A program made the translations under genes and the position numbers. A DNA stretch of 42,196 nt from a virus (Duplodnaviria; Caudoviricetes): IMG/VR virus record IMGVR_UViG_3300022867_000025, positions 1-42,196 of that record. One strand, given 5' to 3'. The notes under the pieces were generated by a model that saw only the letters and a list, made by a program, of their open reading frames with translations, was not told the DNA's origin and made no database searches. The first letter of the stretch is position 1. Every line of letters starts with the position of its first letter. Shown here one piece after another: positions 30,714 through 36,462 of this stretch.

Positions 30714-31352
30714 CTAAACCCTTGTATTAGCTACATTGATACATATATATATAAATTCATCGTCGGTTAAGTTGCGTTTGGCTAGGTTTACCTTACCCGC
30801 AACCCACTGAATATTCCCTACTACGTACCCTACGCTGCTGTCTATTCTGTCTAGACTTGCTGTGCCACCCTTATACGTAGTAGTGAGGTCTACCCCACTT
30901 AGCGCACATTTAGCAGTATAGGTGTCCCACATCTGTTCTTCTGTAAGGTTAAACTCCAACCCTCTATTCCTAGCGTTTTTTATTACTCTACGGTATATTC
31001 TAGTCTTGTCTCCGACAGTCCGGTTCTTGGCATAACCTCTGGCCTTACCAACACAGAGTTTACACTGCCAGTCTGCAACTGTGCTTTGTTTTGCATGGCC
31101 CAGCCTAGTGTACGCCTGCTCCCTACCACACCCACTACAGGTGCTACTCCACTTACCTTCCGCATTTTTGTATACCTCAGTGGGCTCAATTTGTCCCTTT
31201 TGGTATTTATTCGTGCAGTTTCTACAAGTACCCCGGGCCAACATTTTTACCGCACCATATTTAGTTGTAAAGGCTACTTCGGCCCCACACTTGCAGGTAG
31301 TCCTAAACCCACCCTCTGCTTTAGAGATTCTTGAGTCTTCTATGGTCACCAT
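30714..31352 (-). CDS. free-standing HNH-type homing endonuclease with tandem zinc ribbons
   Basis: CKCG..CRNC and CSGCG..CKLC N-terminal ribbons; CALSG...SLDRIDSSVGY..GNIQWV...VN.AK nuclease core. Confidence 0.8.
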   Translation of the reverse strand: MVTIEDSRISKAEGGFRTTCKCGAEVAFTTKYGAVKMLARGTCRNCTNKYQKGQIEPTEVYKNAEGKWSSTCSGCGREQAYTRLGHAKQSTVADWQCKLCVGKARGYAKNRTVGDKTRIYRRVIKNARNRGLEFNLTEEQMWDTYTAKCALSGVDLTTTYKGGTASLDRIDSSVGYVVGNIQWVAGKVNLAKRNLTDDEFIYICINVANTRV

Positions 31353-32070: not shown

Positions 32071-32280
32071 TTATGAGAGAGCAGCGCCGATAGAAGTAAC
32101 CCAAGCAGCGCCTGTGTTAATTACTAGACAAAACTCGTTATTGCCTGCACCATTATCGCTAACGATATACACCGTACCAGCGGAAACAGTAGCAAAAGCG
32201 GGAAGATTAGCCGTGGTTACGACTGGGAAATCAAAGCCGTTTGTAGAAACGACGGGACCAGTAAAGGTAGTTGTAGACAT
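32071..32280 (-). CDS. small virion-associated protein
   Basis: MSTTTFTGPV.S.NGF N-terminus; RBS GAGG directly 3' of the structured RNA. Confidence 0.75.
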   Translation of the reverse strand: MSTTTFTGPVVSTNGFDFPVVTTANLPAFATVSAGTVYIVSDNGAGNNEFCLVINTGAAWVTSIGAALS

Positions 32281-32287
32281 TTTGGAA

Positions 32288-32364
32288 CCTCACATGCGAG
32301 TTATGGCGTATCTGTCTGCATGTCGTCAGCCGGGACTGTCAGATACACCGGTCTAGTTCCCGGG
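32288..32364 (-). ncRNA. structured RNA with two pseudoknots in the 5' leader of 32071-32280 (candidate Mu-gpT-DE-like motif)
   Basis: Minus strand: CCGGGA/UCCCGG (32358-63 with 32330-35), GGUGUAUCUG/CAGAUACGCC (32340-49 with 32305-14), ACAUGC/GCAUGU (32318-23 with 32292-97). Lies downstream of the gpT-like capsid gene. Confidence 0.7.
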
Positions 32365-32373
32365 ATAACCCCA

Positions 32374-32402
32374 AGTATATAACATTTATTCTTGCATTGC
32401 AC
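32374..32402 (-). promoter_or_regulatory. putative promoter for the structured RNA and downstream late genes
   Basis: TATACT -10 (32374-79) about 10 nt upstream of the RNA; weak -35 GTGCAA at 17 nt. Confidence 0.45.
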
Positions 32403-32413
32403 AACAGATAGGT

Positions 32414-32521: not shown

Positions 32522-32695
32522 TTACTGTTTAGTACGGGCTTTCTTTTTAGCCGCAGCACTAAGTTCCCCATAGTGGAGGAGGGTGCTGGCATTTTTACTC
32601 ATTTTTGAACCACTCATAAGTGTGCCGTCTGGGTGTTTATGGGTCTTACCTGTAAACACTTCCCCATTCTTTCTATAATGCTTTGCGTTTTTCAT
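32522..32695 (-). CDS. 57-aa His/Lys-rich protein; not in ORF track
   Basis: MKNAKHYRKNGEVFTGKTHKHPDGTLMSGSKMSKNASTLLHYGELSAAAKKKARTKQ; GGGG RBS-like; lies between two terminators. Confidence 0.65.
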   Translation of the reverse strand: MKNAKHYRKNGEVFTGKTHKHPDGTLMSGSKMSKNASTLLHYGELSAAAKKKARTKQ

Positions 32696-32766: not shown

Positions 32767-33675
32767 TTAAGCGCCCGGAGAACCAAATATACCCAGTGGA
32801 TCAGATACGCCGAAGCTGTATCTCTCGCGGGCTTTATAACGGCTGTTACCAGTGTCGAAATCAGCATCCATGCTTGTTTGCATAGGTGTTCTGACAAAGT
32901 GCTTCAGGCCGTTAGGAATGTCCGTCATCAAGAACCAAGCATTGGTATCCGTTAGGTAATGGTTAGTTGAATAACCACCCGGGATAGCACTGTTGTTCTT
33001 AAGGGCGTTCAAGTCGTTATCTGCTGTACCAACACGGAGGTTAGTTTCCAAGATGCGCGTAGCAACGAATTGCAAGGCAGGTGGAATGATTAACTTCTTA
33101 GGTTGTGCAGCAATTAGCAAGCCACGCTCATCAGTCCAGCCAGCAATCTGAATAACAGCCGCTTCTAGTGAAGCCTCGTTAAGGTCAGCCGCAATAGCAG
33201 GACGGTTAGAGTTAACGCCACCAGAAACCAATGGATGCGCTGTTGAACATAAAGACACACCGTCACCGTAAGTAGTAGCGCCGGAGAATGCGTTGTTCAA
33301 TATTGTGGAACCTTTAACTTGCTTAGTGTAAGCCATAGCGCGGGCGAGAGCCTTTGTATAGCGAGCAGAAAGTGAGTCGTAAAGATTATCCTCAATAGCT
33401 TCCTCAGTAATAGAGAACCCCATTGCGATAGTCTCGTTGGTATACCGAGCAGTGTACGCTTCTTGTGCGTTATCATACTCAATAGCAGCGCCTTCACCCT
33501 TAACAGGTGCAGCACTAAAGCCTGACAATTTAACTTCTTCCTCGAATGAGCGGTCAGAAGTTTCTGATTCAAAAATCTCAGCAACCTCATCGTTGTACTT
33601 CGCATATTCGAGACCAAATAAGGCGTTTAGGCCCGGTAGTAACTCCTTAAGGAGTTGTGCTCTTGAAATAGCCAT
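32767..33675 (-). CDS. major capsid protein (Mu gpT-like HK97 fold)
   Basis: MAISRAQLLKELLPGLNALFGLEY...SDRSFEEE...ITEEA.EDNLY...DG..L....HP...YKARERYSFG.SDP; strong RBS; followed by a terminator. Confidence 0.88.
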   Translation of the reverse strand: MAISRAQLLKELLPGLNALFGLEYAKYNDEVAEIFESETSDRSFEEEVKLSGFSAAPVKGEGAAIEYDNAQEAYTARYTNETIAMGFSITEEAIEDNLYDSLSARYTKALARAMAYTKQVKGSTILNNAFSGATTYGDGVSLCSTAHPLVSGGVNSNRPAIAADLNEASLEAAVIQIAGWTDERGLLIAAQPKKLIIPPALQFVATRILETNLRVGTADNDLNALKNNSAIPGGYSTNHYLTDTNAWFLMTDIPNGLKHFVRTPMQTSMDADFDTGNSRYKARERYSFGVSDPLGIFGSPGA

Positions 33676-35780: not shown

Positions 35781-36275
35781 TTAAGCTCGCGTGACAGCAC
35801 GCGGATCAGCAACGACTGCTTCTACAGAGTCGTCGTTCATTAGTCTATATTCTTGGGTTCCCACCTTAAAGCGCGTACCAGTGTTAGCCCGGAACATTAC
35901 ATAGTCCCCCACCGCACACCACGGACCAGTAGGGAAACGTTCTTTATCAGAATACGCCTGCTTACCCATCTCAATAACTGCACCAACCGTAGACAAGATA
36001 TACTCCTCTCGTACAGTCTGGTTTGACTTAACTAACCCACTTTCACCATAGGTTTCTTCCACGTTTGGAAGTGCGATAAGTACTCGGTAACCTACAGGTA
36101 CTGGTATCTGGGCCTCTATTTCAGCAGCTTCCGCCGCCTCGGTCTCAATCCTACCCTTACGTTTTTTCTCTAGTTCTGTAGGTTCCACGGGAAACAACTC
36201 TAACTGCTCCGTTAGTGGTTCCCCTGATGCCCCCACAAGCACACTGGTCTGCCCGACTTCTGCTTTACTCATCAT
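35781..36275 (-). CDS. groES: GroES-like co-chaperonin
   Basis: PVGYRVLI...T...GLV...G.VI.MG..AY...WC.VGDYV.F....GTRF.V...EYRLMNDD.VEAVV. Likely start is ATG 36275/36272, overlapping the upstream gene. Confidence 0.85.
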   Translation of the reverse strand: MMSKAEVGQTSVLVGASGEPLTEQLELFPVEPTELEKKRKGRIETEAAEAAEIEAQIPVPVGYRVLIALPNVEETYGESGLVKSNQTVREEYILSTVGAVIEMGKQAYSDKERFPTGPWCAVGDYVMFRANTGTRFKVGTQEYRLMNDDSVEAVVADPRAVTRA

Positions 36276-36462
36276 CTTCTTCCATATATTTACGCGAAAG
36301 GTCATTTAGTTCTCTAAGTGCGATGTTTAGACCCTGAATTACACCACACCCCTCCCTGTACCCGGCGAAGTCTTTAGCTCCCCCGTTGTTCAGAAATTCT
36401 TGTGCAGAGGTTTTATGCTCTGTTAACTTGTTGTTCAGCACGCCAAAGACGGTAGTAGCCAT
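36265..36462 (-). CDS. conserved small protein between portal and GroES
   Basis: L..GGAKDF..Y...CG.IQGL pattern. Confidence 0.7.
   Translation of the reverse strand: MATTVFGVLNNKLTEHKTSAQEFLNNGGAKDFAGYREGCGVIQGLNIALRELNDLSRKYMEEDDE

Follow-up and report, generated by a model that had tools for sequence, protein, structure and literature searches.

The post-capsid leader and its fold

The window, that is, the whole 42,196-nucleotide stretch of phage DNA analysed here, encodes a helicase, a primase, a terminase, a portal, GroES and a Mu gpT-like capsid gene. The major capsid gene lies on the minus strand (32767–33675; Mu-like gpT, PF10124; HTVC023P-like). Its product scored 34.3 bits against PF10124 (cut-off 20.1) and is 56–70% identical to those of MinM2, DSL-LC04, HTVC023P, HTVC027P and CRP-901. 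According to bioRxiv 2019.12.14.876532, no known marine phage group is more abundant than the HTVC023P-type group. A GroES-like co-chaperonin with an N-terminal extension (35781–36305, minus strand) is encoded between the portal and capsid modules, and an HNH/endonuclease VII-like gene (30714–31352, minus strand) lies within the late operon. The first-pass annotation had placed a strong terminator between the capsid gene and a structured leader; two are present (32745–32730 and 32439–32420), the second being an intrinsic-terminator-like hairpin 5′ of the leader. Between them lies a 57-codon basic ORF (32522–32695, minus strand) with no PHROG match. Relatives hold other insertions, often endonuclease-like, at this place, and a tRNA gene was seen in the post-capsid region of one locus (L666:3319–3391).

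The leader itself occupies the minus strand between the second terminator and the AUG at 32280, where the gene for a 69-aa protein begins (32071–32280, minus strand). A putative promoter (32374–32404, minus strand) can be read from the sequence as TTGTGC, a 17-nt spacer and TGn-TATATA at 32381–32376, or with TATACT at 32379–32374 as the –10 box. The TATACT box of the first-pass annotation is present where it was said to be, but a sigma-70 consensus scan did not pick it up (0 sites called). We infer that transcription starts at 32368–32365. Among 113 leaders of the window's type (type I), a –10-like box stood 6–11 nt ahead of the structure in 73, and none was found in 22.

The fold spans ~75 nt, and a search of the window for a second copy found none. 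All three interleaved helices that had been proposed are there on the minus strand: P0 (helix a; 32363–32358 with 32335–32330), P1 (helix b; 32349–32340 with 32314–32305; 10 bp with one G-U) and P3 (helix c; 32323–32318 with 32297–32292). Dinucleotide shuffling of the 77-nt leader, done 3000 times, never gave this 6/10/6-bp interleaving. MFE folding of the leader gave a z of –0.48, without significance, as expected for a pseudoknot. Two elements had been overlooked at first reading. These are a fourth helix, P2 (CAG/CUG; 32338–32336 with 32329–32327), and a lone C32325-G32316 pair. With these in place the leader reads as follows, always on the minus strand. The final base of the P1 5′ strand (32340–32349) is the G of a first GAC, whose A32339 is unpaired and which runs into the CAG of P2 (32336–32340). 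The P0 3′ strand (32330–32335) forms the loop of P2, and the CUG of P2 runs into a second GAC (32325–32329; A32326 unpaired, C32325 in the lone pair). The loop closed by the lone pair contains the P3 5′ strand (32318–32323), and a third GAC (G32316 in the lone pair, A32315 unpaired) leads into the P1 3′ strand (32305–32316). The third unpaired A lies 35 nt from the AUG. The P3 3′ strand (32292–32297), the GCAUGU of the earlier description, is flush with the GAGG Shine-Dalgarno (SD) sequence at 32288–32291, as had been claimed, and covers –17 to –12 relative to the AUG. Positions –17 to –12 fall inside the 30S footprint. The P0 5′ strand (32358–32363) sits in a perfect 8-nt palindrome (32358–32365), and 4-nt palindromes are also frequent in the P0 and P3 strands of homologous loops.

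Covariation had been named as a check on the fold, and homologues bear the fold out. Loci were fetched by protein, which kept the RNA sequence from biasing the sample. In 41 such leaders, 95% of cells were paired and 16 of the 21 pairs had changed on both sides (P1 9/10, P2 2/3, extended P3 5/8, where one of the two extension pairs was mostly unpaired); neither the 500 shuffles nor any slid control came near this level. P0 had at least five Watson-Crick pairs in 121 of 125 leaders paired with their own strands, compared to 1749 of 14,596 swapped pairs (12%). P0 was counted by script because MAFFT misplaces its 5′ strand and fails to align divergent forms. P3 had that many Watson-Crick pairs in 113/113 own leaders compared to 1678 of 11,768 swapped pairs (14%), a count that is partly circular since P3 helped define the class, yet no leader ended as 'unclear'. 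There were 34 distinct P0 and 29 distinct P3 helix sequences. Mismatches in P1 comprised 59 G-U, 1 A-C and 15 others, and the excess of G-U over A-C establishes that the minus strand acts, as RNA. These comparisons confirm at sequence level that the three interleaved helices are real and strongly covarying, although some of the co-changes may reflect cassette swaps rather than independent mutations. A covariance model built here scored HTVC023P at 32.5 bits and DSL-LC04 at 20.3 bits, but HTVC027P at only 10.1 bits (E 0.58). Despite quite different sequence, HTVC027P and 023Pt_psg01 parse into all four helices.

A triple-GAC junction shared with Mu-gpT-DE

At the core of the fold three G-A-C strands meet in a three-way junction that leaves three As unpaired. 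G1-C3 closes the end of P1, C1-G2 opens P2, and C2-G3, the lone pair, closes the P3-forming loop. In 160 of ~200 leaders a sequence-blind parser placed an A at each of the three junction positions. With the refined parser, 198 of the 201 distinct leaders (247 capsid-anchored loci, 213 of them with an arm-type gene) showed the core, at a threshold that 21/200 capsid-gene leaders and 28/202 shuffles also passed. Two of its three misses (L565:2800–2844 and L589:2805–2849) are a minimal, fully nested three-way junction, in which C2-G3 starts a true hairpin that contains the SD, while the AUG lies in P1; this form has no Rfam match. Counting them, 200 of the 201 distinct post-capsid-gene leaders of HTVC023P-like phages carry the core, including those of the cultured phages HTVC023P, HTVC027P, DSL-LC04 and CRP-901. 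The third miss, a type II leader, was not parsed into the core.

The lone pair, which the parser did not require, was C-G in 194 leaders, U-A in 3 and A-U in 1 with zero mismatches, and changed on 4 separate occasions on the capsid tree. The X1-Y3 junction pair was G-C in 181 and A-U in 15. Conservation reaches at least 97% at seven junction nucleotides (the mis-parsed L114 was excluded from the column counts), only three of them unpaired; flanking positions vary. By architecture the 201 leaders comprised 113 of window type, 73 of Mu-gpT-DE type, 12 hybrids and 3 others, with 25 switches on the capsid tree compared to at least 60 with shuffled labels. P0 is dispensable among homologues. In the 113 window-type leaders P3 overlapped the SD in 53, was flush with it in 48 and lay 1–5 nt off in 12; the SD itself is unpaired in 60 of the 113, the window included. 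The RNA lies 12–43 nt from the start codon. There are at least four interchangeable architectures, each pairing against the ribosome-binding site.

Other arrangements were also seen in the post-capsid region. A third leader type precedes the same 69-aa protein family (L032–L077, e.g. L034:2410–2505, and L607), with an inverted repeat, TATATA, a hairpin, two GACs and a CUCG/CGAG stem beside AGGAG, the stem being compensated in L058. It had no Rfam match in four loci tested nor in L607 and was not parsed into the triple-GAC core. Phage MinM2 (L521:1560–1640) lacks the core, and there an 8-bp anti-SD strand and a hairpin across the AUG could hide the ribosome-binding site of the equivalent gene. 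In L648, just 3′ of the capsid gene, a leader starts like Mu-gpT-DE and breaks off with the start of the arm gene gone, an apparent deletion.

The first-pass annotation had likened the leader's location to that of the Mu-gpT-DE motif (RF03012, typed by Rfam as 'Gene; sRNA'). This link stands for core, position and the gpT-like gene upstream, but not for family membership. Its proposed search of Rfam gave no family for the window at gathering level nor at E up to 10, the weak matches being terminators, and RF03012 alone gave no match to the window (membership score 49 bits). RF03012 matched 3 of 20 loci tested at 70–75 bits (3/3 type III, 0/13 window-type), and CRP-901 also matches it. Both forms lie downstream of a Mu gpT-like capsid gene in the order terminator, –10 box, RNA, SD and arm-type gene, and share the core P1-A-P2...P2′-AC-loop-GA-P1′. 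The window has the Mu-gpT-DE trait of an outer helix, a single A and an inner helix beginning CAG/CUG, and its AC...GA linker before the 3′ strand of the outer helix is 12 nt compared to 13 nt in the Mu-gpT-DE model. The two forms swap for each other on the capsid tree, and the 12 hybrid leaders combine the window's P0 and long P1 with a loop that pairs with the start codon as in Mu-gpT-DE. The forms differ in size (~75 compared to 53 nt). P1 in the window has 10 bp with the SD outside, whereas in Mu-gpT-DE it is a 4-bp CCUG/CAGG helix containing the SD (AGG), 13 nt from the AUG. The second arm is a pseudoknot in the window, its 6-nt loop pairing with an upstream strand, but an extended hairpin in Mu-gpT-DE, and P3 pairs beside the SD in the former and on the AUG in the latter. 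On this sequence comparison the window RNA is a larger sister architecture of RF03012 and, by the Rfam model, not a member.

The Rfam model of Mu-gpT-DE draws neither the lone pair nor P3, and the 13-nt strand left unpaired in Rfam is complementary to the gene start. In 110 distinct Mu-gpT-DE leaders (L428 was excluded as a chance match) this pairing was GCC/AUGGC in 76, CCC/AUGGG in 33 and in a shifted register in 1, and was concordant in 109 of the 110 (76 G:C, 33 C:G). On the capsid tree the two bases changed 12 and 11 times, and jointly 12 times; 82 of 85 agreed there and the other three kept the pairing in a shifted register (by eye). Cassette exchange might inflate these co-change counts. 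P3 of Mu-gpT-DE is only 4–6 bp long, with frequent mismatches at the outer pair (U-U or A-G in 18/110). The ZWD structure of Mu-gpT-DE has 11 pairs compared to 9 in Rfam, and the part of the CaCoFold supplement available to us lists the motif under types 7 and 8 (loop, non-Watson-Crick covariations), not under 'new pseudoknot'. Searches of the literature on Mu-gpT-DE, structured phage RNAs, HTVC023P and operators found no description of the fold in the texts available to us.

The gene behind the leader

The RNA is tied to one gene. Pattern matches preceded a TTFxG-arm gene in 115 of 118 cases, and two of the remaining three preceded recognisable variants. Wherever the flank was at least 1 kb, the capsid gene was upstream (72/72 loci). 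In 35 loci where 430–1317 nt separate the arm gene from the capsid gene, the RNA is found beside the arm gene. In six loci (728–1791 nt fetched) the capsid terminator is followed directly by the next gene, and both the arm gene and the RNA are absent, as judged with a descriptor whose sensitivity was 182/201. L672 and L686 have an arm-type gene without the core in front, behind an inserted ORF. With a pattern that was too loose for bacterial contigs, 100 of 120 bacterial loci were scored and gave 5 strong matches, all on MAG contigs and 4 beside the same capsid gene. The narrow type I pattern alone would, by estimate, occur in ~1,900 IMG/VR stretches.

The 69-aa protein has a TTFxGPV N-terminal arm, a small beta domain and a predicted homotrimeric state. 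It has 181 homologues; the F-x-G arm is conserved in 203 of 213 loci and is the only conserved part of the product. The protein of the window contains no K, R or H, and among 177 downstream products (57–313 aa, mostly acidic) just 6 had a net positive charge. The single-chain model reached a pLDDT of 78.6. The three-copy model scored 0.87 against 0.00 for the best control, with at least 93% of contacts agreeing between runs and pLDDT of at least 87; in the calibration, which was made on two copies and is unlike the three-copy job, 20 of 30 solved pairs and 1 of 23 single chains came up to this mark. The model buries arm residues 1–20 in the interface. Sequence and fold searches with the protein gave nothing significant, including Foldseek with the model (no match at E up to 0.001). 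Its weak resemblance to tail-fibre and tailspike units (VIA Z 3.3–3.8 to Mtd and tailspike N-terminal units) is not significant, being below the noise level of the tool. The positional homologue in DSL-LC04 is annotated 'cement protein', and the modelled product is likely a capsid decoration or fibre protein.

In the available part of the HTVC027P time course (PMC12753301), the gene behind the leader, gp62, is a late one, averaging 12,786, 22,241 and 28,568 TPM at 9, 12 and 15 h, compared to 10,371, 33,390 and 74,585 for the capsid gene, so that by these values gp62 mRNA exceeded capsid mRNA at 9 h and fell below it at 15 h. The upstream genes gp60 (3,456, 8,343 and 11,866) and gp61 (8,271, 20,718 and 36,186) were likewise raised relative to capsid at 9 h, and gp61 was above gp62 at 15 h. 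Since gp60 and gp61 share the early rise, the TPM values are no proof of a separate promoter for gp62.

Proposed regulation by the leader and alternative readings

The third arm lies against or over the SD or the AUG in all architectures that were parsed. Besides the junction, pairing of the ribosome-binding site is the one feature common to all of them, and for this reason we believe that the element is probably a cis translational off-switch (probability about 0.8, on comparative grounds). Of the functions offered at first reading, covariation and gene context support the translational switch. The ribozyme and packaging-RNA options fare poorly with only seven junction nucleotides at 97% or more, a dispensable helix a, and a third arm on the ribosome-binding site, 12–43 nt from one start codon. 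In the proposed mechanism, formation of P3 would block 30S loading, and P0 stacked on P2 would merely build the second arm that Mu-gpT-DE makes as a hairpin.

As to what operates the switch, we lean tentatively, at somewhat short of even odds, toward an autogenous operator bound by the gene's own predicted trimer. This choice reflects that the RNA follows that gene, that conservation within the product is confined to the arm, and that a three-fold protein fits a three-fold junction. Unassembled decoration or fibre trimer would recognise the pseudo-three-fold junction through its TTFxGPV arms and stabilise P3, and mature capsids would titrate the trimer away, releasing translation; these are the least certain steps. 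Sequence argues against autogenous control in the lack of basic residues in the window protein and the mostly acidic products, in the arm genes of L672 and L686 without a core, and in the unparsed type II leader before the same 69-aa family, as does the predicted trimer in burying the arm proposed to read the junction. The SD left unpaired in 60 of 113 type I leaders and the short, frequently mismatched P3 of Mu-gpT-DE also count against it. The fuller idea, which we regard as doubtful, is a symmetry-matched switch that counts mature capsids. A C3 capsid-surface protein would read the three-GAC/three-A junction in at least four topologies, with Mu-gpT-DE re-assigned as a cis operator. A bolder variant would have the junction bind a C3-symmetric small molecule.

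The same off-switch might be worked by a different protein, from the host or from the phage (the major capsid protein or some other late protein), which would couple a separately transcribed decoration gene to capsid production. The constant upstream capsid gene (72/72 loci) fits this, as do a capsid protein far better conserved (56–70% in cultured relatives) than the controlled proteins, terminators that rule out ordinary translational coupling, and the acidity of most controlled products. The RNA nevertheless tracks the downstream gene and is lost with it in the six loci that keep the capsid gene, which speaks against this reading; we consider it fairly unlikely. It is also unlikely that the fold is a ligand-free attenuator, setting a fixed or folding-time-limited translation rate and shielding the 5′ end, with the three As purely structural. 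Shape evidently matters, as the X1-Y3 and lone pairs tolerate compensatory swaps; architectures interchanged 25 times on the capsid tree, and MinM2 hides its ribosome-binding site with an unrelated fold. But a simple hairpin would suffice for such a task, and the three-A junction has been kept through four topologies, suggesting recognition.

SAM-II and preQ1-II/III translational riboswitches use an SD-adjacent pseudoknot, and like them the window RNA has a terminal pseudoknot helix at the ribosome-binding site. A riboswitch sensing a small molecule or an ion, in which the triple-A junction would be the pocket and P3 the expression platform, is in our view quite unlikely. Unlike these classes, the window RNA has no Rfam riboswitch or aptamer match, has just three conserved unpaired nucleotides and is seen before one virion gene only, not before metabolic genes; the 5 strong bacterial matches (100/120 loci) were all on MAG contigs, 4 beside the same capsid gene. 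The SD-adjacent pseudoknot, multistem junction and seven nucleotides at 97% or more do fit the sophisticated-RNA heuristic of PMC5737381, as far as that source was available. A structural or packaging RNA processed from the leader and oligomerising by loop-loop pairing (pRNA-, ROOL- or GOLLD-like) would account for 4-nt palindromes in the two pseudoknot loops (77 and 86 of 113, compared to 19 for P1; 8/21 and 16/33 distinct loop 6-mers, compared to 13/61). We hold it to be very unlikely, as each loop covaries with an intramolecular partner, many members have no palindromes, and the SD or AUG lies within the fold in several architectures. The least probable reading, and a highly improbable one, is a ribozyme whose self-cleavage would process the late mRNA at its 5′ end. 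A compact double pseudoknot would suit this; Rfam gave no ribozyme match at E up to 10, P0 is dispensable, and some variants fold the AUG in. A hammerhead core consists of a CUGANGA box plus GAAA. The window's CUGACGA fits the box, but the hammerhead reading was rejected, as there is no GAAA partner and the bases after the second GAC vary freely.

The proposed autogenous operator has its nearest known counterparts in T4 gene 32 and E. coli rpsO (S15), where a leader pseudoknot likewise precedes one gene and, as proposed here, excess product over the primary ligand feeds back (PMC3014915). They have no sequence or fold homology to the window RNA and are single H-type knots bound by nucleic-acid-binding proteins, whereas the candidate binder here is an acidic virion protein. 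In the part of that 2010 review available to us, T4 gene 32 is the only viral pseudoknot operator named (PMC3014915).

In the phages studied here, one small junction has been rebuilt as a hairpin, a pseudoknot, a hybrid and a fully nested form, each closing on the ribosome-binding site. The orphan 'sRNA' Mu-gpT-DE thereby gains a concrete, testable role, and since cultured phages carry the element, it can be tested directly. If this reading is true, the class for which the 2010 review names T4 gene 32 alone among viruses would gain a pseudoknot operator that controls a virion protein.
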